Positions 7,655 to 45,509 are shown, numbered from the stretch's first letter. The stretch is 64,000 nt of DNA from Acidimicrobiia bacterium (GCA_031430375.1 JANPBJ010000149.1:16776-80775), one strand, 5' to 3'. Notes: generated by a model not told the origin, from the sequence alone. Translations and numbers: made by a program.

Positions 7655-7760
7655 GGCCGATGTCAGATGACGTGACGCCTGGGTGGCCGTGCGACCTCGC
7701 TGACGAGCGCTTGTCGGATAAGTGGCGGTCAGCACCACCCACGCGACAAGCAGTCGCGGG
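7655..7760 (+). repeat. interspersed ~100-nt repeat, copy A (TTGTCGGATA box plus CGCGAC-AAGCA-GTCGCG hairpin)
   Basis: The 52-nt core 7681..7732 is 49/52 identical to the reverse complement of 23321..23372. Flanking TGACGTGACGCCTGGGTGG and the hairpin at 7742..7758 are also shared with locus B. Confidence 0.85.
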
Positions 7761-8075: not shown

Positions 8076-9947
8076 ATGTTGAAGTTCCGCGTTCGATTGT
8101 TGGCGATCGTCTGCGCGCTCGGTGCGGGGCTGGTCCCCGCGCTCGTCCTCGACACCAGCGCACCCGCCCTATCGAACCCGACGTTGCCCTACCTCACGGT
8201 GGACCACACCATCAGCTCCCAACCGTGGGTCCCGGTCGTGGCAGGGAGCACCACGAACGCGTTCGACCTCGACGGCGGCACATTCTTGCCCTTCGACAAC
8301 GCGTTCTGGTTCGTTGACGACGGCGGGAATCGAGCGTATGAAGTTGACCGCACGACCGGAAAACTCCGGCGCACCATCACACAATCTGCGTTCTCCGCGG
8401 CTCAGCCCGTCGGCGGCGGCACCGCGGCGGGTCTCGGCCGTTCGGATGCACTTCAGTCGGCTGCGTACGACGTGTTTACCGACAGCCTGTACATCTTTTC
8501 CGCCAACTGTTGCGGCGTCGCGCCCTTCCAACCAACTGCATTTCGACTCAAGCGCGACGGTGCTGGAAAGTTCCAAGTCGAGTCGTACCAAGCGCTTCCC
8601 GAAGGCACCAACCCTGCAGCCGCGGGCTACCGGTATGGCTCCGGCCTGTACTTCGGGAAGGGCACCAAGATCCGAACGTACGACTACGCGATGAACACCA
8701 TCGGACCCGACATCAACATCATCGGTGCAGGAACATCCATCACCGGAATGGATTTCCCCGACGCCGACACGCTGCTCCTCACCACGACGCTGAATCAGTT
8801 AGTGAAGGTCTCAACCGCAGACTGGACGGTGGTCAGCGGGTGGACGTTCGACCTCGGGCGTCTCGGAATCCTCGACCCACGATCGGTCGATGCGTCCGGC
8901 GATCAGATCTTTATCGCCGACGGCTACGACCTGCGACCACCCACGGACCCGCTGAAGTACGCGGTCTTCGTGCTGAACCTCAGTGAGACCCCGCCCCCCG
9001 TCGCGTCGTTCGCGCCCCACGTGACCCGCGGCGCGAGCCCGTTGGCGGTGTGGTTCGTCGATCACAGCATCCGCGCCGAAACCCACCTCTGGAACTTCGG
9101 CGACGGCTCTCCCACCTCCACCGAGATCAGCCCGGCGCACATCTACACCACCCCCGGCACCTTCACCGCGACGCTGCAGGTCACGAGCGTCGGTGGCACC
9201 GACAGCGCGAGCAAGGTCATCACCGTGTTGCCCGGAACCGCGCGTACCGGTGGATACACCCTCGACGGTTTCGGCGGTCTCCACCCGTTCAAAATCGGTA
9301 GCACGCCGGTCGCGCCCGCGGCCCGCGGCGCGGTCTACTGGCCGGGCTGGGACATCGCTCGCGGCGCGGCCAGCCTCCCCGACGGGTCCGGCGGCTACAC
9401 CCTCGACGGCTACGGCGGTCTCCACCCATTCCGGATCGGAGCCGGAACCACTCCGCCGGCCGCAAAGAACGGTCCGTACTGGCCCGGAGTCGACGTCGCA
9501 CGCGGCGTCGCACTCATGCCCAACGGTAAGGGCGGACTCTTGGTGGATGCCTACGGCGGGATCCACCGCTTCCGGGTCGGAGCCAGCGCCCTGCCTGGGC
9601 GGCCAACCGGGAGCCCGTACTGGTTGGGTCGGGACATTGCCCAAGGCATCACGATCCTGCCCGACGGATCCGGCGGTTACGTGATCGACCGGAACGGCTC
9701 GCTCCACGCGTTCACTATCGGTGCGAATCCCTCACCCCCCGCTCCGACCAACGTCTGGGCCGCACCGGCGAGCCGGCCCGGTCGGGGTGTGTCACTCCTC
9801 AGCACCGGGACCGGCGGCTACACCATCGACGGCACCGGTGGAGTTCACCGCTTCGCAGTCACGAAGATGCCGCCCGGAACCTCGGGGATCGCCACCTGGC
9901 CCGGGTGGGACATCGCCCGCGACATCGTCGTACTCCCCGCGAACTAA
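8076..9947 (+). CDS. secreted protein: N-terminal unknown domain, PKD domain, five ~47-aa C-terminal repeats
   Basis: Signal-peptide-like N-terminus MLKFRVRLLAIVCALGAGLVPALV. PKD signature WNFGDGSPTS...HIYTTPGTFTATLQVT at aa ~307-385. Five repeats of GGYTLDG-GGLHPF...YWPGWDIARG at aa 392-623. GAAGGGG lies 7 nt before the ATG. Confidence 0.8.
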   Translation: MLKFRVRLLAIVCALGAGLVPALVLDTSAPALSNPTLPYLTVDHTISSQPWVPVVAGSTTNAFDLDGGTFLPFDNAFWFVDDGGNRAYEVDRTTGKLRRTITQSAFSAAQPVGGGTAAGLGRSDALQSAAYDVFTDSLYIFSANCCGVAPFQPTAFRLKRDGAGKFQVESYQALPEGTNPAAAGYRYGSGLYFGKGTKIRTYDYAMNTIGPDINIIGAGTSITGMDFPDADTLLLTTTLNQLVKVSTADWTVVSGWTFDLGRLGILDPRSVDASGDQIFIADGYDLRPPTDPLKYAVFVLNLSETPPPVASFAPHVTRGASPLAVWFVDHSIRAETHLWNFGDGSPTSTEISPAHIYTTPGTFTATLQVTSVGGTDSASKVITVLPGTARTGGYTLDGFGGLHPFKIGSTPVAPAARGAVYWPGWDIARGAASLPDGSGGYTLDGYGGLHPFRIGAGTTPPAAKNGPYWPGVDVARGVALMPNGKGGLLVDAYGGIHRFRVGASALPGRPTGSPYWLGRDIAQGITILPDGSGGYVIDRNGSLHAFTIGANPSPPAPTNVWAAPASRPGRGVSLLSTGTGGYTIDGTGGVHRFAVTKMPPGTSGIATWPGWDIARDIVVLPAN

Positions 9948-21437: not shown

Positions 21438-22811
21438 TCACGCGAATTGCGGGAGCCACTCGGCGGTGGCGCCAAGCAGCTCGTCGGTCATGCGCTCCAA
21501 GGCCTCGAAGGCGATACGGCCCGCCAACGGGTCGGCGTGCATCGCAGCCAGGACCACGTCTCGATCCCCGGTGACGCCTGCCTCCACGGTGAGCTCCTGG
21601 GCGACCGAGACCCGGCGGAGCTGTTCGGCCAGCACCGTCGGCGCAATCGCTCGATCGCGCCCGCGCATGCCAGCACCGTCGACGGTGCAGATGCTCTCGA
21701 CCACAACGGCGTCGGGGAGGTCGGGGCATTGACCGGCGTTCGGCAGGTTGAGCGGGAGGTCCCGACGGTGACCGGTGATCAGCGAATCGATCGCGGCGGC
21801 CACCAGCTCGCCCGATGGCACCCGCGAGACCTCGGGGGTTGCGAACATCGCGTCGAGATCCGTGGCGTGCCCAACTTCAGACCGTTCGCGATCCTCGATC
21901 GTGGTGAGACGCACTCCCCACCGTTCACCCCACCCGGATTCGGCGGTGAGGAACCCGGGGAAGAACTCGGCGAGGTGACGGTCGCCCGCACCCGGGAGCG
22001 CTCCGAACCGTCGGAACAGATCGAACTTCAGGCGATTCGCGGCGATCAGATCGCCCTTGGTCCAGTGCTCACCCGGGGTCGGCTTTGCGAGGCCCAAACC
22101 TTCGGGAAGGTCCATCGCCAGCCGTTCGTCGGCGCGCCCGGGATCATCGAGGAGCTCGGCAAGGAGCTCGAAACCGTCGCGTCCTCCCACGGTGGCGCGC
22201 GTGACGATGGGAAAGTGATTGACGCCCGTGATCTCGAGATCAATGGATCGAAAGTCCACCTCGAGGAGGAGTGACAGGAGGAACTGCAACACCGTCACCT
22301 CGTGGCACAGGCCGACCGTGCGAATCGACGACTCACGCGTGACCGCGCGACAGATCGTGGTCATCGGATTCGTGATGTTGAGCATCCACGCGTCGGGACA
22401 CAGCTCCTCCATGTCCGCTGCGATACCGAGAAAGATCGGGATGTTGCGCAGCGCGCGCGTGATCCCTCCCGGACCGACCGAATCGCCGACGCTCTGCTCG
22501 ATCCCGAAACCGCGCGGGATTTCCAAGTCGTGACGCATGCTCGCGAACCCGCCGGTGGAAATGGTGACGACCACGTAGTCCGCACCGCCGAGCGCGTCAC
22601 GTTGATCGGTACTCGTGCGCACCGACAACGGGATGGACCGCCGCGCGGCCACGTGTTCCACCCACTCCGCCATCCGCGGCAACGGCGCCGGGTTGATATC
22701 GACGAGCACGATCTCGGCCCCAACCAGCGAGGGCGTGTTCGCGACGTCCACCACGAGATTGGGCACCCACTGGTAGCTCCCGCCGCCGATGACCACAATC
22801 CGCGGGCTCAC
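21438..22811 (-). CDS. glycoside hydrolase family 4 (NAD/Mn-dependent glycosidase)
   Basis: Track ORF 21438..22931. The family-typical N-terminus VSPRIVVIGGGSYQW starts at GTG 22811 with GAGG upstream (ATG 22853 is an alternative). Motifs NITNPMT and GLCHEV. Confidence 0.8.
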   Translation of the reverse strand: MSPRIVVIGGGSYQWVPNLVVDVANTPSLVGAEIVLVDINPAPLPRMAEWVEHVAARRSIPLSVRTSTDQRDALGGADYVVVTISTGGFASMRHDLEIPRGFGIEQSVGDSVGPGGITRALRNIPIFLGIAADMEELCPDAWMLNITNPMTTICRAVTRESSIRTVGLCHEVTVLQFLLSLLLEVDFRSIDLEITGVNHFPIVTRATVGGRDGFELLAELLDDPGRADERLAMDLPEGLGLAKPTPGEHWTKGDLIAANRLKFDLFRRFGALPGAGDRHLAEFFPGFLTAESGWGERWGVRLTTIEDRERSEVGHATDLDAMFATPEVSRVPSGELVAAAIDSLITGHRRDLPLNLPNAGQCPDLPDAVVVESICTVDGAGMRGRDRAIAPTVLAEQLRRVSVAQELTVEAGVTGDRDVVLAAMHADPLAGRIAFEALERMTDELLGATAEWLPQFA

Positions 22812-22851
22812 GTCAGCCTCGCTCTTGGCCCTGCCGGCCGGGCCGCTCCGC
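22812..22851 (-). repeat. leader/intercistronic element copy Z (short form), directly 5' of the GH4 start
   Basis: Sense strand reads GCGGAGCGGCCCGGCCGGCAGGGCCAAGAGCGAGGCTGAC then GTG. It shares the GCGGAGCGG box and the GGCCCGGCC...CAGGGCCAAGAG core with copies X and Y. Confidence 0.65.
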
Positions 22852-22878
22852 ATTCGGCGTGGCGTTGCCGCTGGACAC

Positions 22879-23331
22879 TCAGGATCCTTGCGATCCAGGG
22901 TCGAGGAGGGACTGCAAACCACCGTGCACATGACGAAGGTAGGCCGGACTCTCCCACGCCGCGGGGAAATGACCCAAGGCGGTTGTCAACACCCGGCCGG
23001 ATCCTTCGGAGAAACTCCAGGCGACGGGATATCCATAGGCGGGCGGTCGGGCGCCCTCCGCCGTCAGATCCAACTGTTCGACTGGGACCCGCACCAGGAT
23101 GTGCGCATCCGGTCGAAGGTCCCGAAATTGATACACCTCGTCGTGCCAACGCCACCGCGACCCGAGATGCGCCGTCGCCGGATGGCTCGCATCCACCACT
23201 TCGAGATCCACGGTCTGCGTCCAGGGATGCCCGTCGAAACGCGCGCCGACGATACGGCCGAGTCCTCCCAGCCGTGGCACGCATCGGCCGCCGCGTGGAT
23301 CGCGACGGCTTGTCGCGCGGGTGACCGCCAC
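22879..23331 (-). pseudogene. ThuA-domain protein, 5'-truncated fragment
   Basis: The 150-aa ORF carries only the C-terminal ~130 aa of a ThuA-like fold (FDGHPW...HPATAHL...DEVYQF...GRVLTTALGH...YLRHVHGGLQ). The N-terminal ~80-90 aa of the family are missing. The first ~20 codons of the ORF run into repeat copy B. Confidence 0.5.
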
Positions 23332-23505
23332 TTATCCGACAAGCGCTCGTCAGCAAGGTCGCACGGCCGCCCAAGGGCGCGGTCAGCACACCGACCCGGC
23401 GACCGTTTGTCGCCTGGGTGGCGCTCACCGATTGAATCCGCCGCCAGCTATCCGACAAACGCACCGGGGAGTGGGAGCTCCTCCACCCAAGCGTCACGTC
23501 ACTCG
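23299..23505 (-). repeat. interspersed ~100-nt repeat, locus B (two tandem units B1 and B2)
   Basis: B1 at 23299..~23375 has core 23321..23372 and hairpin CGCGAC-GGCTT-GTCGCG at 23301..23317. B2 at ~23376..23505 has box TATCCGACAAACGC at 23449..23462 and hairpin GGCGAC-CGTTT-GTCGCC at 23398..23414. Both are inverted relative to copy A. Confidence 0.8.
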
Positions 23506-23676
23506 AACGGGCTGCGTTCCGCGGAACGCATCGCCACCTGCGAACGCCCCAAGCGACACCGGCTCGATCACCACAACCGTGCGGGCCATGGTCTGACGGT
23601 TCTCCATTGCCATGAGTCCCGCAGGGAGGTCGGCAAGATCGACTTCTGGCTCGCGTGCCCGCATCGTTGCGATCAT
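23494..23676 (-). CDS. hypothetical small protein (60 aa), possibly a remnant of an MDR/zinc-dehydrogenase C-terminus
   Basis: Internal ATG of track ORF 23494..23886, preceded by a strong SD (CCGGAGGTCCCC-ATG), 14 nt after the ipdC-like stop. The peptide MIATMRAREPEVDLADLPAGLMAMENRQTMARTVVVIEP resembles the C-terminal strand of quinone-oxidoreductase-type proteins. The 3' end lies in repeat B. Confidence 0.3.
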   Translation of the reverse strand: MIATMRAREPEVDLADLPAGLMAMENRQTMARTVVVIEPVSLGAFAGGDAFRGTQPVRVT

Positions 23677-23690
23677 CGGGACCTCCGGAG

Positions 23691-24764
23691 TCAGACGGAT
23701 CCGAGGCGAGCCAAGGTTTCGGTGGCTTCGCGCATCACGCGTTCGATGATGGTGGCGACTGTGGGCAACTCGTCGACGACGCCGACTACCTGGCCGGTGG
23801 GCAACACCCCGGTGTCGAGCCGGCCGTCGACCAACGCGGCCTTCGTGAGCATCGGCGCGTTGGCGGCCATAGCCACCTGAGCCCAACTCAAGCCCTGGCT
23901 CTTCTTCATCGCGATGCCTTCTTGCGCGAGGTCACGCAGGGACCGTCCGCTCAGCGACCGGAACCGCAGCGCGTTCGCGAGTGATCGAGGCAGCGCGCTG
24001 ATCCGACCCGCTCCGTCGAGATGGTCGACGAGTTCCGTGCGGATCACGCGCTGCGGATGCCCGTCGACCTGCTTGGTAACAACGGTGTCGGTGACCGACG
24101 CTTCGAGATACCGGGCTTTCACTGCGTCGGGTACCCGGCTCTCCGCAGAGAGGAGGAACCGTGTCCCCATCGCGATCCCGGACGCTCCGTACGCGAGCGC
24201 GGCGACCAGCCCGCGACCATCGAAGAACCCACCGGCCGCGATGACCGGGATGTCGACCGCGTCACACACTTGCGGCAGGAGCAGCGAGGTCGGGACCGTC
24301 CCGGTATGCCCGCCGCCTTCCGCACCCTGGGCGATCACTGCGTCGACACCCCACTCGGCCACCTTCTCGGCGTGGCGCCGAGCGCCGACCGTCGGTATCA
24401 CAACCACTCCCTGGTCCTTGAGCGTCTTCACCAACCGCTCGCCCGGAGCCTGAGCGAAGCTCGCGACCTTCACGCCCTCTCGCACCATCAGGCCGATGCG
24501 GTCGTCGACATCCGGTTGATCCGAACGCAGGTTCACGCCGAACGGCTTGTCGGTCCGGTCCTTCACCGACGCGATCGCGGTCGTGAGTTCGGGCACGCTC
24601 ATCGTGGCGCTGGCGAGGATGCCGAGCCCACCGGCCGCACTCGTCGCCGCGGTGAGCCGGGCGCCGGCGACCCAGCCCATCCCCGTCTGGACGATCGGGA
24701 ACTCCACGCCGAACAGCTCACACGCGCGGGTATGCAACGCCGCGTTGGTCGGGCCGCCGCTCAT
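23691..24764 (-). CDS. ipdC: NMO-family FMN enoyl reductase (nitronate monooxygenase fold), IpdC-like
   Basis: 357 aa. Motifs FPIVQTGMGWVA and AQGAEGGGHTG. It is the last gene of a hydratase / CoA-transferase A / CoA-transferase B / NMO operon, the same order as M. tuberculosis Rv3550-Rv3553. Confidence 0.7.
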   Translation of the reverse strand: MSGGPTNAALHTRACELFGVEFPIVQTGMGWVAGARLTAATSAAGGLGILASATMSVPELTTAIASVKDRTDKPFGVNLRSDQPDVDDRIGLMVREGVKVASFAQAPGERLVKTLKDQGVVVIPTVGARRHAEKVAEWGVDAVIAQGAEGGGHTGTVPTSLLLPQVCDAVDIPVIAAGGFFDGRGLVAALAYGASGIAMGTRFLLSAESRVPDAVKARYLEASVTDTVVTKQVDGHPQRVIRTELVDHLDGAGRISALPRSLANALRFRSLSGRSLRDLAQEGIAMKKSQGLSWAQVAMAANAPMLTKAALVDGRLDTGVLPTGQVVGVVDELPTVATIIERVMREATETLARLGSV

Positions 24765-24813
24765 CCCTCCCCCTCTTGGCCCTGCGGGCCGGGCCGGTCA
24801 GGCCCCGCTCCGC
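24765..24813 (-). repeat. leader/intercistronic element copy X, directly 5' of the ipdC-like start
   Basis: Sense strand reads GCGGAGCGGGGCCTGACCGGCCCGGCCCGCAGGGCCAAGAGGGGGAGGG then ATG. It is 39/42 identical to copy Y over the first 42 nt. Confidence 0.8.
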
Positions 24814-24849
24814 CTGCCGGGCGCGGCCGCAGCTGCCGTACGGCGTCGC

Positions 24850-25623
24850 TCATGGGTTCGGCACTTCCTTGTCCCGGAGACCGTGCGGGTCGATGACCTC
24901 GCGGATCAGCTCGAGTTCGTCCGGGGTGGGTGCCCGGGTCTCGGGGACATCGCTCGGCATCGCGAGTTCGAACCCGGTCGCGGCCACGATGTCGTCGACG
25001 CTCACCCCGGGATGCACCGACCGCAACCGCATGTGGTGATCCTCGGTCTCGAAATCGAGTACACCAAGATTGGTCACCACATGACGCAAGCCGTGGAACC
25101 GACCCGCCGCACCCAGCTTCGCGGCCCGGTCGTATCCGACACCCGTGACCACATCCACCTTGGGCACGAACACCCGGGCTGAGTGATTGGGAATCCAGTA
25201 GCTCGTGATGTTCTGGATCGTGTTCCCAGCTGCGCCACGGAAGCCCAGTAACTGCGCCTTGGGCTGGTCCCAGTCGCCGACGAAGGCAAAGTTCTGGTTG
25301 CCGAACGCGTCGATCTGGCTGCCACCCATCATCACGTGGCGGCGACCCGACCACACCAAGTCAAACATCGAGCGATACGGATTCCACGCTTCGATCGTCT
25401 TGGGCTGATCCGTCGGACCCACCGGGTAGGGGCCGGCGATGAGCAGCGCCTCGCCGTCGGTCATGACGAGGTCGGGCGAGAAACTCGCGCGGGCCAACCG
25501 TCCCCCGATCATCGGGACGGTGCCGATCGGATTGCACAGAATCTCGCCGTCGCCGCGGAAACATTCCGCCACCGCGATCACGCAGTACTCCGCGCGGGTG
25601 ATGAGATCGTTGGTACTGCTCAT
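24850..25623 (-). CDS. ipdB: CoA-transferase subunit B (IpdB-like)
   Basis: Track ORF 24850..25788. The real start is ATG 25623 (MSSTNDLITRAEYCVIAVAECFRGDGEILCNPIGTVPMIGGRLA), typical of 3-oxoacid/glutaconate CoA-transferase beta subunits. Confidence 0.7.
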   Translation of the reverse strand: MSSTNDLITRAEYCVIAVAECFRGDGEILCNPIGTVPMIGGRLARASFSPDLVMTDGEALLIAGPYPVGPTDQPKTIEAWNPYRSMFDLVWSGRRHVMMGGSQIDAFGNQNFAFVGDWDQPKAQLLGFRGAAGNTIQNITSYWIPNHSARVFVPKVDVVTGVGYDRAAKLGAAGRFHGLRHVVTNLGVLDFETEDHHMRLRSVHPGVSVDDIVAATGFELAMPSDVPETRAPTPDELELIREVIDPHGLRDKEVPNP

Positions 25624-25676
25624 ACACCTCTCCCGCTCTTGTGCCTTCGGCACAGGCCGCTCGGGCCCCGTTCCGC
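25624..25676 (-). repeat. leader/intercistronic element copy W, between CoA-transferase A and B genes
   Basis: Sense strand reads GCGGAACGGGGCCCGAGCGGCCTGTGCCGAAGGCACAAGAGCGGGAGAGGTGT then ATG. It has the same 5' box and the same CAAGAG-SD end, with a different perfect hairpin (TGTGCC-GAA-GGCACA) in between. Confidence 0.7.
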
Positions 25677-25715
25677 TGGCGTCTTGGCTGCAAGCGTCGT
25701 TACGTTCCGCTCCAC

Positions 25716-26585
25716 TTAGGCCCCGACCACCTTCCGGTATTCGTTGTGGTCGCCGCAGTCGAGATACTTCGCCCGCCACTCGTTCCACGCTTCGGGCGTC
25801 TTCGCGCTCGCGGCGTAGGCGCGTTGGAACTCTTCGTCACGCGGGTAGTCGGGAACGCACTCGGTGAAGTGGGCGCCGTGCGGTGCCTCGATCACGCCGT
25901 CGGTCATCAAACGGTTGATCTTCAGCGACTGCACCGGTCCGCCCGCGGCCAAGTCGTCGGTGTCGACGATCTTCTCCACACTCATGAAGCGCCGATCGGC
26001 CGCCATGCAGAAGAGGTCGTCGAAATAGGGATCGACGTTGAGGTACTGACCGTTCCCGCGCCGATCGCCCCGGTGCATGTGAATCAGCGCAACATCCAGG
26101 TGCAGCGCCGGTGCGGCCACCAACTCCTCGCCGTCGTCATACGGCGAGACGACGGTGCGGATCTCGTCTTGGCGCTCGAGCAGATCGGAGCCGAGGCCCA
26201 CCCGGGTGGGGATGAATGGCACCCGCCACGCCGCGGCCTGCAGACCGAGCAGGAACATTCCCTCATCCATTTCGAGGGTGGAAACCGCACCGGCCTGACG
26301 CGCCTTCCGGAAATGCGGTTCGAGCGCGATCGAGTCGAGCGAGCAAAACGCGTAGACGGCCTTGCGCACCTTGCCGGTGGCGCACAACAAGCCGAGATCG
26401 GGGCCGCCGTAGGACACGACCGTGAGGTCTTTGACATCGCTCTGCGCGATCGCTCGCACGAGGCTCATCGGCTTCCGGCGTGAGCCCCAGCCGCCGATGC
26501 CGATCGTCATACCGTCGAGGAGCTCGGCGACCACATCCGCTTCGGTGACAACTTTCGAGGACGGCTGCGCCAAGGTGAGACTCAC
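25716..26585 (-). CDS. ipdA: CoA-transferase subunit A (IpdA-like)
   Basis: 289 aa. The GTG start overlaps the upstream stop (GTGA). Sequence DGMTIGIGGWGSRRKP, a typical alpha-subunit glycine-rich loop. Confidence 0.7.
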   Translation of the reverse strand: MSLTLAQPSSKVVTEADVVAELLDGMTIGIGGWGSRRKPMSLVRAIAQSDVKDLTVVSYGGPDLGLLCATGKVRKAVYAFCSLDSIALEPHFRKARQAGAVSTLEMDEGMFLLGLQAAAWRVPFIPTRVGLGSDLLERQDEIRTVVSPYDDGEELVAAPALHLDVALIHMHRGDRRGNGQYLNVDPYFDDLFCMAADRRFMSVEKIVDTDDLAAGGPVQSLKINRLMTDGVIEAPHGAHFTECVPDYPRDEEFQRAYAASAKTPEAWNEWRAKYLDCGDHNEYRKVVGA

Positions 26586-27343
26586 TTGGTGACGTCCGTG
26601 TCGCGCTTGGCGACGAAGGCGTCGCGGTGTTCGTCGGCCACGCCGGAGAGATTCAGCTCGAACGTGAACCCTTGCTCGAATCGATAGGAACGCTTCACGT
26701 CGATCGGGTCGATGCCATTGAGAGACTCCTTCGCGGCGCGGATAACGGTGGGACTCTTCGCGGCAATGTCGCCCGCCACCGCGAACGCGGCGTCACGCAA
26801 CTCCGCGAGGGGCACCACCTGCAGCACCGAGCCGAAATGATGCAGCTCCTGTGCGGTGATCGTGGCTGCGGTGTACACCATCGCTCGCATGCGGTGTTGG
26901 GGAACGAGGCGCGCCAGGTGGGTGGCCGCGCCCAACGCACCCCGATCCACCTCAGGGAGACCGAAGGTGGCGTCGTCACTGGCTATCACGATGTCGGCGT
27001 TGCCCACCAGGCCAACACCACCGCCGAGGCAGAAGCCGTTGACCGCGGCAATCACCGGTACCGCGCACTCGTAGACCGCGGCGAAGGCCGCGACGCACCC
27101 CCGGTTCGCGCCGATCAGGGCATCGAACCCCTCGGTGTTCTGCATCTCTTTGATGTCCACCCCGGCGTTGAAGCCACGGCCCTCGGCTCGCAGCACCACC
27201 ACGTGCACGGCCGGATCCTCACCGAGCGCACGGATCATCCGCGCCAGTTCGAACCAGCCGGCCACGTTCAGGGCGTTCACCGGCGGGTTGTCCATCACCA
27301 CCTCGGCAATGCCGGCAGCGTCGACGATTTGGGTGATCGGCAT
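26582..27343 (-). CDS. echA20: enoyl-CoA hydratase/isomerase (crotonase fold), EchA20-like
   Basis: 253 aa. Motifs NPPVNAL, RAEGRGFNAGVDIKEM, AAVNGFCLGGGVGL. First gene of the ipd-like operon. Confidence 0.65.
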   Translation of the reverse strand: MPITQIVDAAGIAEVVMDNPPVNALNVAGWFELARMIRALGEDPAVHVVVLRAEGRGFNAGVDIKEMQNTEGFDALIGANRGCVAAFAAVYECAVPVIAAVNGFCLGGGVGLVGNADIVIASDDATFGLPEVDRGALGAATHLARLVPQHRMRAMVYTAATITAQELHHFGSVLQVVPLAELRDAAFAVAGDIAAKSPTVIRAAKESLNGIDPIDVKRSYRFEQGFTFELNLSGVADEHRDAFVAKRDTDVTK

Positions 27344-27375
27344 GGGCGCACCCCAGAGAAAAGAGGGAAGAGTTT

Positions 27376-27390
27376 CTGACGGGTCGTCAG
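27376..27390. promoter_or_regulatory. perfect inverted repeat CTGACG-GGT-CGTCAG in the echA20-like / SDR divergent promoter region (candidate operator)
   Basis: Read directly. It sits 33 nt upstream of the echA20-like start and 112 nt upstream of the SDR start. No cognate regulator gene is in the window. Confidence 0.3.
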
Positions 27391-27452
27391 ATCGGGGAAA
27401 CTTACCCGCATGAGTGAAGCGAGCCCTACCCCCAGCCTGTACCGATCATCTC

Positions 27453-27501
27453 GCGGAACGGGGCCTGTCCGGCCCGGCCCGCAGGGTCAAGAGGACAAGC
27501 C
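27453..27501 (+). repeat. leader element copy Y, directly 5' of the SDR start
   Basis: GCGGAACGGGGCCTGTCCGGCCCGGCCCGCAGGGTCAAGAGGACAAGCC then ATG. It lies on the opposite chromosomal strand from X, W and Z, but like them is in sense orientation to its downstream gene. Confidence 0.8.
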
Positions 27502-28272
27502 ATGAGCGATGAACTGGACATGTCGGGCCGCGTCGTCCTGGTGACGGGAGGAGCGCGCGGGATCGGTCGCGGGATCGCCGAGGCGTTCCTCGGCCGAGGT
27601 GCGAACGTCATCGTGTGCGGTCGGACCGAGCCCGACGAGCTCCCGACAGCGGCCGCTCACTCCGCCGTCTTCCTCGCCGCCGACGTGCGTGACGCCGACG
27701 CCGTCGACGCGCTCGTGACCGAAACCGTGGCGCGGTTCGGACACCTCGACGTGTTGATCAACAACGCGGGCGGATCACCATGGGCCGACTCCGCGACGGT
27801 GTCGCCCAAGTTCTCGCGGTCGATCATCGAACTCAACCTGCTGGCGCCGCTCGTGTGCGCGCAACGCGCCAACGCGGTCATGCAAACCCAAGCCGACGGC
27901 GGTTCGATCATGAACATCGCGAGCGTGAGTGGACTACGACCATCGCCCGGCACCGCAGCGTACGGCGCGGCCAAGGCGGGGTTGCTCAACCTCACGCAAA
28001 CGCTCGCGGTCGACTACGCCCCGCTCGTTCGCGTCAACGCGGTGAGTGCAGGCCTGATTCGCACCGAGCAATCACATCTTCACTACGGCGACGAAGCCGG
28101 GATTGCCGCGGTCGGCGCGACGGTGCCGCTCGGGCGCATGGGGACTCCGGCCGACATCGCGAACGCGTGCATCTTCCTCGCGTCTCCGCTCGCGGCATAC
28201 GTTTCCGGAGCAAACCTCACCGTCCACGGAGGCGGCGAAGCCCCCGCCTACCTCGACGCCGCGAGCACTTGA
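27502..28272 (+). CDS. SDR family oxidoreductase
   Basis: 256 aa. Motifs VTGGARGIGRGIA, NNAG, YGAAKAG. It is divergent from the echA20-like gene, as Rv3549c/Rv3548c are in M. tuberculosis. Confidence 0.85.
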   Translation: MSDELDMSGRVVLVTGGARGIGRGIAEAFLGRGANVIVCGRTEPDELPTAAAHSAVFLAADVRDADAVDALVTETVARFGHLDVLINNAGGSPWADSATVSPKFSRSIIELNLLAPLVCAQRANAVMQTQADGGSIMNIASVSGLRPSPGTAAYGAAKAGLLNLTQTLAVDYAPLVRVNAVSAGLIRTEQSHLHYGDEAGIAAVGATVPLGRMGTPADIANACIFLASPLAAYVSGANLTVHGGGEAPAYLDAAST

Positions 28273-39788: not shown

Positions 39789-40804
39789 TGCTCACCGTCG
39801 GGAACGTTTCGGTTCGGTACGGATCGACGATCGCAGTCGACGGGGTTGACCTCACCGTGCTCGACGGCGAGATCGTGGCAGTCCTCGGGCCGAGCGGGAG
39901 CGGGAAGACCAGTTTGCTCCGGGCGATCGCCGGCCTCGAACCGATCAGCTCAGGCACCGTGCGTTGGAACGACCTCGACGTCACCAATGTTGCGGCCCAT
40001 CGCCGTGACTTTGGTTTGATGTTCCAAGACCACGCGCTCTTCGGTCACCGGGACGTGCTCGGCAATGTGAACTTCGGGCTCCGGATGCGCAACGAGAGCC
40101 GCAATCGTCAGATCGCACGATCCGTGGAGATGCTCGCGCTCGTGGGACTCTCCGGATACGAGCACCGCAGCGTCGATCAACTCTCTGGGGGTGAGCAACA
40201 ACGCGTGGCCCTCGCCCGCGCGCTCGCACCTGCGCCGCGGCTCCTCATGCTCGATGAGCCCCTCGCGTCGGTCGACCGTGAACGCCGGCAGCAACTCGCA
40301 ACAGAACTCCACCGCATCATCCGCGCCAGCGCGACCCCCACGCTGCTCGTAACCCACGACCTCGACGAGGCATTCACCCTGGCCGACTCGGTGGTGATCT
40401 TGGACCGAGGCCACGTTGAACGCGCCGGCAACGCCCGGGACGTCTGGCGTAATCCGGGATCGATCACCGCGGCGCGCTTCCTCGGCGTGGCGAGTGAGTG
40501 GACCTTCACCATCCACGGGTCCATCGAGGGGAGCACCGTCATCACGCCATGGGGACCCATCCCGGCGCCCGACGCGACGCAACGGCAGGCGTGGGTCGGG
40601 TTCCGGCCCGTCGATCTGCGCATCGACCGCGCCGGTCCCGTCGATGGGACCGTACGCGCCACATGGTTTCGCGGCGACCACTTCGTGAGCGAGATCGACA
40701 CCGCATTCGGACCGTTGACCGCGGTGAGTCGAACATCACCCGACCTTCATTCGAAGGTCTCGATCGCCGCCGATCTCGATGCCGCGGTGGTGCTCGGCGC
40801 ATAG
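39788..40804 (+). CDS. thiQ: ABC transporter ATP-binding protein with C-terminal TOBE-like domain
   Basis: 3' part of track ORF 38633..40804, ATG 39788 (TGATG overlap). Walker A GPSGSGKT, signature LSGGEQQR, Walker B LLMLDEP. Confidence 0.75.
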   Translation: MLTVGNVSVRYGSTIAVDGVDLTVLDGEIVAVLGPSGSGKTSLLRAIAGLEPISSGTVRWNDLDVTNVAAHRRDFGLMFQDHALFGHRDVLGNVNFGLRMRNESRNRQIARSVEMLALVGLSGYEHRSVDQLSGGEQQRVALARALAPAPRLLMLDEPLASVDRERRQQLATELHRIIRASATPTLLVTHDLDEAFTLADSVVILDRGHVERAGNARDVWRNPGSITAARFLGVASEWTFTIHGSIEGSTVITPWGPIPAPDATQRQAWVGFRPVDLRIDRAGPVDGTVRATWFRGDHFVSEIDTAFGPLTAVSRTSPDLHSKVSIAADLDAAVVLGA

Positions 40805-45461: not shown

Positions 45462-45509
45462 GCGTTTGTCGAGCAGGTAGCGCTGAGCGCACACAATCCG
45501 ACAAGCGCC
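45462..45509. repeat. inverted pair of GCGYTTGTCG(GAT) boxes related to repeats A/B, between convergent genes
   Basis: GCGTTTGTCGAG at 45462..45473 and, on the other strand, GGCGCTTGTCGGAT at 45496..45509, with an internal GCGC-TGA-GCGC hairpin. Confidence 0.5.

Follow-up and report, generated by a model that had tools for sequence, protein, structure and literature searches.

This study concerns a short repeat element that occurs four times in a 64-kb window (the whole stretch of DNA analysed, 64,000 nucleotides; GCA_031430375.1 JANPBJ010000149.1:16776-80775), each time directly in front of a gene. Three of the four copies cluster within 4.7 kb in a locus that comprises the echA20-ipdABC genes and a divergently transcribed gene of the short-chain dehydrogenase/reductase (SDR) family; the fourth lies in a thuA-GH4 sugar operon. 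Judged by its sequence, the host is an uncultured Acidimicrobiia-type actinobacterium; the best IpdB matches are 92% identical, and their sources are metagenomes and metagenome-assembled genomes (MAGs) labelled Acidimicrobiia. The genes of the region are the following.

26582-27343, minus strand: echA20-like enoyl-CoA hydratase gene
25716-26585, minus strand: ipdA
24850-25623, minus strand: ipdB
23691-24764, minus strand: ipdC-like gene, NMO family
27502-28272, plus strand: divergent ipdF-like SDR gene
21438-22811, minus strand: GH4 glycosidase gene, start codon GTG at 22811
22879-23331: thuA-like open reading frame (ORF) upstream of the GH4 gene, 5′-truncated, with Pfam ThuA positions 100-207 of 209 left

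The four copies of the element, designated X, W, Y and Z, each consist of a unit that carries a short reading frame (mini-ORF), one or two hairpins and a candidate Shine-Dalgarno (SD) sequence.

24765..24853, minus strand: unit X, 89 nt, between ipdB (TGA 24852-24850) and the ipdC-like gene (ATG 24764), its own ATG at 24853 overlapping the ipdB stop
24853..24761, minus strand: X mini-ORF, MSDAVRQLRPRPAGGAGPDRPGPQGQEGEG, whose TGA stop overlaps the ipdC ATG
24792..24804, minus strand: X hairpin 1, GGCC-UGACC-GGCC
24778..24790, minus strand: X hairpin 2, GGCCC-GCA-GGGCC, then the candidate SD AAGAG (24777..24773), 8 nt before the ATG
25624..25715, minus strand: unit W, 92 nt, between ipdA (TAA 25718-25716) and ipdB (ATG 25623), its GTG at 25715 directly after the TAA
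25715..25620, minus strand: W mini-ORF, VERNVTTLAAKTPAERGPSGLCRRHKSGRGV, whose TGA stop overlaps the ipdB ATG
25655..25667, minus strand: W hairpin 1, GGCC-CGAGC-GGCC
25641..25653, minus strand: W hairpin 2, GUGCC-GAA-GGCAC, a compensated variant of GGCCC-GCA-GGGCC, then AAGAG (25640..25636), GGGAGAGG and the ATG
27410..27501, plus strand: unit Y, 92 nt, on the start codon of the ipdF-like SDR gene (ATG 27502), its own ATG at 27410 taking the position of the SDR start in empty sites
27410..27505, plus strand: Y mini-ORF, MSEASPTPSLYRSSRGTGPVRPGPQGQEDKP, whose TGA stop overlaps the SDR ATG
27462..27474, plus strand: Y hairpin 1, GGCC-UGUCC-GGCC, with loop GUCC complementary to the GGAC after AAGA (core positions 32-35)
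27476..27488, plus strand: Y hairpin 2, GGCCC-GCA-GGGUC, with one G.U pair, then the candidate SD AAGAGG (27489..27494)
22812..22882, minus strand: unit Z, 71 nt (92 minus 21), degenerate and without hairpin 1, with the thuA-like stop (TGA 22881-22879) inside CTGA and the GH4 GTG (22811) following
22839..22827, minus strand: Z hairpin 2 remnant, with AAGAG at 22826..22822
22882..22808, minus strand: Z frame, still stopping on the TGA that overlaps the GTG

The four copies stand out clearly from the surrounding DNA. The composite pattern GCGGARCGG-N15-40-CAAGAGS has exactly four matches in the window, at 22821-22851 (minus), 24772-24813 (minus), 25635-25676 (minus) and 27453-27494 (plus), as compared with 0.01 expected from shuffled sequences. 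A covariance model built from 126 distinct copies found in relatives (alignment A2) scores W at 66.7, X at 61.7, Y at 57.2 and Z at 26.8 bits (E = 0.0012 for Z), and identifies no further credible copy in the window beyond these four. The next-best match of the model, at 39886-39908 (14.3 bits, E = 0.54), was rejected upon inspection as the Walker A codons (GPSGSGKT) of an ABC ATPase, which mimic both GAGCGG-containing flanks of the element. Comparison of unit W with a plasmid collection by blastn returned no matches.

An earlier note on this DNA had described these sequences as leader elements of 40-53 nt fused to the ribosome-binding site, and had proposed a search of Rfam; that search returned no family, with 0 matches at the gathering score across the whole window and 0 at E ≤ 1 across 22700-27600. 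Both the pattern scan and the covariance model recover all four copies where the note had placed them, and two of its further observations hold, namely that X and Y are 39/42 identical despite lying on opposite strands, and that W carries a different hairpin in its middle (UGUGCC-GAA-GGCACA instead of GGCCC-GCA-GGGCC). The element itself is real, but what had been described is only the conserved 3′ half of a longer unit, the 5′ half having been missed. The distance from CAAGAGS to the start codon, given as 7-14 nt, measures 7-11 nt. Besides the two copies recognised as intercistronic, W and X, copy Z is intercistronic as well, since it is preceded by the truncated thuA-like ORF; Y occupies the start of a gene transcribed divergently. 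The RTGA junctions at which the units lie, and the bridging mini-ORF with its length rule, had gone unnoticed.

Aligned on its core, the full unit is 86, 89 or 92 nt long and starts at the RTGA stop/start junction of the upstream gene; a short form found elsewhere measures 53 nt, and Z is a 71-nt deletion form. Its parts follow one another in a set order: RTGAGYG, a variable 5′ arm, GCGGAGCG(G/T), hairpin 1 (GGCC-N5-GGCC), a single C, hairpin 2 (G-NN-CC-G(C/A)A-GG-NN-C), A(A/G)GAG, about 8 nt, and the RTG of the resident gene. The start codon that the unit itself carries within RTGAGYG replaces the resident start and overlaps the upstream stop. The 5′ arms fall into several unrelated subfamilies, some of which have a hairpin of their own; in the 53-nt short forms (comparison loci L048, L060 and L075) ATGAGCGGAGCGG is joined directly to the core, and hairpin 1 is missing both from Z and from the copy at L035 475-517. 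The two ends of the unit, RTGAGCG... and ...GAGCGGNA, are direct rather than inverted, with RTGAGCGR... and ...ARGAGCGGRA forming direct repeats of GAGCGG.

The earlier note had suggested, from W, that what is maintained 5′ of the SD is structure and not sequence, and covariation among the 126 distinct copies confirms this. The two free stem pairs of hairpin 2 occur as GC in 87, CG in 30, UA in 3 and GU in 2 copies, and as CG in 87, GC in 16, UA in 16 and AU in 1, respectively. In addition, a base in the hairpin 1 loop (core position 8) pairs with the base that directly follows GAG (position 33; GC 83, CG 34, AU 3, GU 3). None of 500 shuffles reaches the observed covariation, which collapses in slid controls; mutual information ranks the two hairpin 2 pairs and the 8-33 pair as the top three, and RNAalifold yields the same two hairpins. 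Hairpin 2 is a 5-bp stem adjacent to the SD with many compensatory changes. The stem of hairpin 1 carries no covariation information because it was fixed by the search pattern, and two off-pattern copies have U.G wobbles in it on the sense strand. The 8-33 contact shows three pair types only, with neighbouring positions pairing solely in a GUCC/GGAC subfamily, a pattern suggestive of a pseudoknot. In the predicted folds A(A/G)GAG is unpaired.

To follow the family beyond the window, we scanned a 596-Gb collection holding one genome per species with an exact pattern whose free stem positions were left open. At least 112 stretches match. Among the matches listed, 110 of the 112 belong to about 40 high-G+C Acidimicrobiia-type MAGs, labelled Acidimicrobiia, Actinomycetes or Actinomycetota, and all credible copies come from such MAGs; single MAGs hold at least 6-11 matches. 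Two chance-like matches among those listed, in Sphingomonas and Devosia, both lack the flanking features of real copies. In 447 kb of flanking DNA, the covariance model detects about 11 more copies, or roughly 1 independent copy per 80 kb. The repeat also forms tandem arrays, with periods of 51, 53, 86, 90, 92, 93 and 99 nt, in nine of the loci compared (L013, L058, L060, L063, L071, L080, L083, L100 and L115).

These data bear directly on whether the likeness between the four sequences could be a chance product of G+C-rich, low-complexity DNA. The box GCGGARCGG by itself is not over-represented in the window (8 found, 5.7 expected), and the model match at 39886 turned out to be Walker A codons, both of which would fit such an origin; however, the composite pattern (4 found where 0.01 are expected), model scores of 57-67 bits and a mere two chance-like stretches among the 112 matches listed speak against that explanation. 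Refuted by the composite pattern, the dispersal scan, the covariation and the frame permutations described below, it retains practically no likelihood.

In passing, MAGs labelled 'uncultured Bifidobacteriaceae' or 'Bifidobacterium breve' hold many family copies on contigs of 65-72% G+C (L018, L026, L032, L033, L039, L053, L060, L064, L070, L109 and others). Judged by these sequences, the bin labels look wrong, or the contigs mis-binned.

We next compared orthologous loci, fetched through IpdB homologues (two JGI loci by gene tables only), and surveyed 80 further metagenomic ipdB loci. An exact look-up of the SDR protein gave no match. At the ipdA|ipdB junction, the two genes overlap by ATGA or GTGA in L002, L003, L004 and L007 (by 1 nt in L003), and the 92-nt W spacer separates them in the window and in L005/L006. 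Across the metagenomic loci, a -4 overlap is found in 60 of 78 and a filling of 80-105 nt in 13; three short spacers (5, 5 and 26 nt) and one 267-nt gap also occur. Family members recognised by the covariance model at this junction in L143, L158, L144, L140 and L126 have 5′ arms and hairpin variants unlike those of W. Because different subfamilies sit there in different lineages, the junction has been occupied independently more than once. At ipdB|ipdC, the genes overlap by 4 nt in L007, X is present in the window, L002 and L005, and L003 has an unrelated 46-nt spacer; the junction is empty (-4 overlap) in 25 of 62 relatives. The SDR start is empty in L002 and L007, and it is occupied by Y in the window and in L003 and L004. 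The closest relative, L007, with 92% IpdB identity, is without W, X and Y; at echA20|ipdA, a junction that is a GTGA overlap in the window, it has a copy of its own flanked by TGAGCGAGACG. Empty sites are ATGA or GTGA overlaps, and filled sites have RTGA at both ends, with an identical flanking run that is mostly 2-5 nt long (TGA to TGAGC; range 2-15 nt).

Several junctions hold inserts of other kinds. An insert of about 60 nt (GGGACCCGCAGAACCCGGCCCGATCCCGACCGGGCCCGAACCCGCACTCAGGAGACGAACG) at the SDR start of L005 (5307-5373) contains a hairpin of its own, with GGAG preceding the ATG, and no other copy of it was found among the compared relatives' loci. The 46-nt spacer of L003 (10774-10831) is flanked by CATGACGCA and likewise has no further copies among those loci. 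Along with the fillers at ipdA|ipdB of L146 and L192 and at echA20|ipdA of L138, this spacer is unrelated to the core, begins with RTGA or CTGA and bridges to the next start; a 5′ GCGAGCGAAGCGAGCG is common to the L146 and L138 fillers. On the evidence of these sequences, further MIRU-like families (the term is explained below) may exist in these lineages.

The presence and absence of the element at orthologous sites also allows an assessment of whether it regulates specifically a steroid ring-degradation (ipd/KstR2-type) regulon, be it as a cis-regulatory RNA or as a protein operator, for instance a riboswitch-like leader, a translational operator or a repressor site. Its fusion to the ribosome-binding site and the concentration of three of the four copies around echA20-ipdABC and the SDR gene would fit such a role. 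Yet the fourth copy serves the unrelated thuA-GH4 operon, at least 100 copies in about 40 MAGs precede many different reading frames (genes having been annotated in the window only), close relatives run the same operon with 4-nt overlaps, and Rfam holds no match even at E ≤ 1. Unlike a TetR-type (KstR- or KstR2-like) operator, the element does not form a palindrome over its full length, nor is it present in the promoters of relatives. A likelier operator is a separate conserved palindrome, TCTGACGGGTCGTCAGA, at 27375-27391. Because this palindrome exists and the element is absent in relatives, the KstR2-type operator idea was dropped, and we regard a regulon-specific role as very improbable.

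The palindrome itself (arms TCTGACG and CGTCAGA around GGT) is located between the divergent echA20 and SDR genes and conserved in L002, L003 (with one central base changed), L004, L005 and L007; it is probably the operator of a local repressor. In empty-site relatives, the SDR ATG follows only about 20 nt past it, and the SDR mRNA there may lack a leader or carry just a very short one; in that case unit Y would supply a start codon at the same position.

The copies are arranged with respect to genes in a strongly biased manner. A sense ORF starts within 30 nt downstream in 102 of 132 copies, and the distance from GAG to that start peaks sharply at 8 nt (45 of the 102). After filtering by G+C content at third codon positions, a downstream sense start accompanies 69% of copies, as opposed to 29% of random positions and 13% in the antisense direction. 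Using a crude coding classifier that requires G+C content to be higher at first than at second codon positions (a previous classifier was fooled by antisense shadow ORFs), we find a sense gene directly downstream in 104 of 130 copies, 61 of which are intercistronic, with another sense gene ending 15-140 nt upstream. The resident starts beside copies read NTGA in 76% of cases and RTGAGY in 40%, compared with about 27% and 6%, respectively, in a crude background.

One subfamily of the core, distinguished by a long 5′ hairpin arm (GAGGCCGACGCC...GGCGKCGGCCGT), occurs in L017, L020, L026, L049, L055, L072 and L087 (for example at L017 5415-5466), and often adjoins apparent stop codons of opposite-strand genes, that is, lies between convergent genes; its role there, if any, must differ.

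Examination of the reading frames revealed how the units fit between their neighbours. In all four window copies, the frame that opens at the junction with the upstream gene (ATGA in X and Y, TAA-GTG in W, CTGA in Z) ends on a TGA overlapping the resident start, yielding mini-ORFs of 24 codons in Z and 30-31 codons in X, W and Y. Fifty copies with both a 5′ RTGAGYG and a downstream gene were available for a test of length and phase. In 43 of these, the distance from the RTG of the unit to the resident start is 86 nt (8 copies), 89 nt (12) or 92 nt (23); it equals 2 mod 3 in 44, and in 36 the stop codon of the mini-ORF is precisely the overlapping TGA. Although neither the 5′ arm (45-55 nt) nor the 3′ spacing (4-12 nt) is constant, they compensate one another such that their sum is kept at 2 mod 3, a behaviour that permuting the spacings does not reproduce (mean 26.6 and maximum 38 of 50, with 0 of 10,000 permutations reaching 44). 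Z also keeps the phase, being 92 minus 21 nt. At filled ipd junctions, the frame bridges the gap in all 8 true family copies, as against 5 of 19 unrelated spacers of similar length.

Relative to the core, the bridging frame makes use of each of the three phases (39, 15 and 11 copies), indicating that the constraint lies in being translated and not in the peptide. This distribution led us to drop the idea that the mini-ORFs encode a functional micropeptide family. Frames are open in all four window copies, and a public gene caller annotated the X mini-ORF as a 29-aa gene in L005 (7925-8014) and L006 (1718-1807), as such a family might lead one to expect; but the same DNA encodes peptides as unrelated as GPDRPGPQGQE and ERGPSGLCRRHK, and the 5′ arms are unrelated between subfamilies, making this account extremely improbable. 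The 29-aa calls are likely to be systematic annotation artefacts, or else unrecognised translated spacers.

Taken together, we consider it likely that the four sequences are copies of a non-autonomous repeat, both interspersed and tandem, that resembles the MIRUs (interspersed repetitive units of mycobacteria), preserves translational coupling and is spreading in uncultured Acidimicrobiia. The repeat would land on RTGA start/stop junctions, in the sense of the gene. Ribosomes ending the upstream gene, or starting on a leaderless or short-leader mRNA, would then translate the mini-ORF, melting the hairpins as they proceed, terminate on the ATGA and re-initiate on the resident gene with the aid of the SD of the element. 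Because ribosomes would re-initiate in this way, insertion should be nearly neutral for operon expression, and a copy probably causes little disturbance to the gene that follows it. As for the hairpins, they may shield the SD from the influence of neighbouring sequence or make the mRNA more stable; in addition to these roles or in their place, they could be required at the DNA level for movement. Among the readings offered in the earlier note, that of a small mobile intergenic repeat carrying its own SD is supported; a regulon-specific operator or riboswitch-like leader is not. The analogy with MIRUs drawn there is borne out by the dispersed family, the empty and filled junctions, the tandem arrays and the sense placement at starts; copies in relatives, which the note had suggested looking for, number at least 112 in about 40 MAGs, and the position and orientation bias, also to be recorded, came to about 80% sense with a mode of 8 nt after GAG.

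Several observations weigh against this reading. About 20% of the copies are not start-adjacent, being internal units of arrays or lying between convergent genes. Single-sequence folds are no stabler than those of shuffled sequences (z from -1.7 to +1.4), and the claim of a conserved structure consequently rests on covariation. In DNA of 66-73% G+C, the openness of a frame does not discriminate (76, 68 and 55 of 86 copies are open in the respective frames); open-frame length was therefore rejected as evidence for the mini-ORF, and the length and phase test used in its place. The sequences show the anatomy of the unit, its dispersal, its presence and absence at orthologous junctions, the frame rule and the covariation, and from these the translation of the mini-ORF, its coupling to the next gene, the use of the SD and the manner of movement are inferred. 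The copies are not phylogenetically independent, so that raw counts overstate the number of events. The short flanking direct repeat cannot be told apart from the RTGAGYG end that the element itself carries. Finally, no transposase or movement mechanism was identified, although no search aimed at RAYT (REP-associated tyrosine transposase) or TnpA enzymes was made. A further caution concerns the hairpins. Triloops of the type G(C/A)A closed by C-G are also typical of very stable DNA hairpins, so the conserved structure may serve the DNA and not the RNA.

This last point underlies a rival account that partly overlaps with the one we prefer, in which the hairpins are DNA movement signals, of the kind used in REP/RAYT or IS200/IS605-type single-strand transposition, and the start, frame and SD are what purifying selection has left over from insertions made at random, and no function of the element. 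The presence/absence polymorphism, the repeated striking of the same junction and the short flanking direct repeat would all be expected, as would the triloop, which as DNA forms an unusually stable mini-hairpin. The stem exceptions, moreover, are about equally G.U and A.C (2 vs 2) and so carry no clear RNA signature, and the covariation of a loop base with a base 25 nt downstream recalls guide-type recognition. Set against these points, the unit lacks both terminal inverted repeats and a GT[AG]G head, neither a RAYT nor a TnpA was seen (with the same limit on the search as above), and the sense-strand U.G wobbles of the two hairpin 1 variants would be A.C mismatches on the other strand. Moreover, the strict 2-mod-3 compensation between the arms is a constraint at the level of translation, whatever moves the DNA. 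On balance, we hold this account to be possible, though not probable.

Alternatively, the element might have been co-opted as an intercistronic hairpin for mRNA stability or processing, as with the REP/BIME elements (defined below) in malEFG or hisJQMP, setting the expression of neighbouring cistrons with coupling secondary. In favour of such a role, the transcribed strand has a covarying, stable hairpin just 5′ of the SD, W, X and Z, three of the four copies, are intercistronic, and some members reside between convergent genes, where only a 3′-end role makes sense. However, close relatives do without the element at the same junctions, a scan for promoters and terminators found no promoter-like or terminator-like site and no U-tract on the elements, and the start codon carried by the unit, the frame rule and the 8-nt start spacing would be left unexplained. 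We judge this role unlikely.

The RNA and DNA sides could also be joined. In a more speculative model, to which we assign a low probability, the repeat would be an active, portable 'translational coupling cassette' whose hairpin doubles as a recognition signal in single-stranded DNA. On the RNA side, hairpin 2 together with the covarying contact of the hairpin 1 loop (core 8-9) with the base ending the SD and the one after it (32-33) might form a small pseudoknot that silences the resident start and is opened by the ribosome translating the mini-ORF, such that obligate coupling would be imposed on the host gene. On the DNA side, the hairpin with its G(C/A)A triloop might be recognised by a putative enzyme targeting RTGA junctions. 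To our knowledge, the movement of MIRU-type elements has never been worked out; were the cassette model true, the Acidimicrobiia repeat would offer a second, independent family in which to solve it.

Two further sets of repeats were noticed in the window. A repeat of about 55 nt occurs twice, at 23322-23373 and at 23441-23501, in the 360 nt before the thuA-like ORF (region 22879-23690); one of these copies is 96% identical to 7680-7731 on the other strand (region 7668-7750), and the repeat is also weakly similar to 45466-45508. No more copies of the 52-nt repeat at 7680/23322 were found among the compared relatives' loci, and the sequence may be a remnant of another repeat or mobile element. 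At 9215-9854, a 141-nt unit (47 codons) is present five times head to tail, with 64-71% identity to a reference copy, and looks like a repeated protein domain within a gene.

Beyond the locus itself, the findings have practical consequences. Gene callers will mis-annotate junctions of this kind, producing spurious 29-aa genes and wrong starts, and the tandem arrays are potential variable-number tandem repeat (VNTR) markers for typing strains in metagenomes.

Comparison with other known systems helps to define what the element is and is not. Repetitive extragenic palindromic sequences (REPs) and the bacterial interspersed mosaic elements (BIMEs) of proteobacteria, which are mobilised by RAYT, are likewise short, G+C-rich hairpin repeats in transcribed intergenic regions, sometimes clustered, and can stabilise mRNA. 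A REP, however, is a single imperfect palindrome with a GT[AG]G head that lies mostly after genes, in both orientations, and follows no logic of start, ORF and SD; the Acidimicrobiia core, in contrast, has two hairpins after GCGGAGCG and lies 80% in sense, directly 5′ of a start, and hence falls outside the definition of a REP.

With miniature inverted-repeat transposable elements (MITEs) and the Correia (NEMIS), ERIC, RUP and RPE repeats, the unit shares its non-autonomous, dispersed nature and insertion polymorphism between strains. RPE repeats insert in frame. Some small repeats carry ORFs, ERIC/RU-1 being an instance (PMC2759123). The Acidimicrobiia unit nevertheless lies outside the definition of a MITE, as it lacks terminal inverted repeats and its flanking repeat, at 2-15 nt, is not fixed; its target, moreover, is an RTGA start/stop junction and not TA or a similar site, and its orientation and frame are constrained. 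A parallel in principle is the synthetic bicistronic design (BCD; mentioned in PMC12548453), in which a short leader ORF containing an SD ends overlapping the start of the gene, and the translating ribosome unfolds local structure and delivers itself to that start. The unit may be viewed as a natural counterpart of such expression cassettes, with the differences that it is mobile, present in many copies and known from its sequence alone.

The strongest likeness is to the MIRUs, first described by Supply et al. (1997), as summarised in PMC12548453 and PMC3184786. These repeats measure 40-100 bp, number 40-50 copies, are intercistronic with empty and filled sites and tetranucleotide direct repeats, and carry ORFs overlapping the adjacent genes (PMC3184786); they 'insert themselves at start codons', with the ORF coupled at -4 nt (PMC12548453). 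The Acidimicrobiia repeat matches this description in its length of tens of nucleotides (its 53-nt short form having the length of the 53-bp MIRU class), in its tens of copies, dispersed and in VNTR-like tandem, with units of 53, 71, 86, 89 and 92 nt, in its intercistronic placement at start codons in the sense direction, and in its small ORF that overlaps the stop and start of its neighbours (-4 nt). Empty and filled sites and a short direct repeat of about 4 nt are also shared, the latter being inseparable from the RTGAGYG end of the unit. The 53-bp unit MIRU292, which reads ATGACTCGCGCCGACGACGATGCAGAGCGCAGCGATGAGGAGGAGCGGCGCAG in the sense direction (PMC7977185), starts with ATGA, has a length of 2 mod 3, encodes MTRADDDAERSDEEERRR and stops on the next ATGA, before which it ends in AGGAGCGG-N5, as do many Acidimicrobiia copies.

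Homology in sequence to this one MIRU unit was not found. When MIRU292 is aligned globally with three of the 53-nt short forms, scores just as good are reached by 144-508 of 2000 shuffles, and only the ATGA and AGGAGCGG-N5 are common to both. The two families also differ in host, Acidimicrobiia as opposed to Mycobacterium, and in the Acidimicrobiia core with its two hairpins, compensatory changes, covarying loop-to-tail pair and several unrelated 5′ arms. As judged from sequence comparison, the element would work like a MIRU without demonstrably being one. Literature searches returned nothing relevant on MIRU-like elements outside mycobacteria or on repeats in Acidimicrobiia, and within the literature searched MIRUs are the only described start-codon repeat that preserves translation through an overlapping mini-ORF. 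A second family, unrelated in sequence and from a distant, uncultured class of Actinomycetota, would mark this design as a general or old solution, and it adds testable features to those of the MIRUs: a 2-mod-3 rule maintained by compensation between two arms, a covarying hairpin adjacent to the SD, and the repeated capture of a single operon junction.

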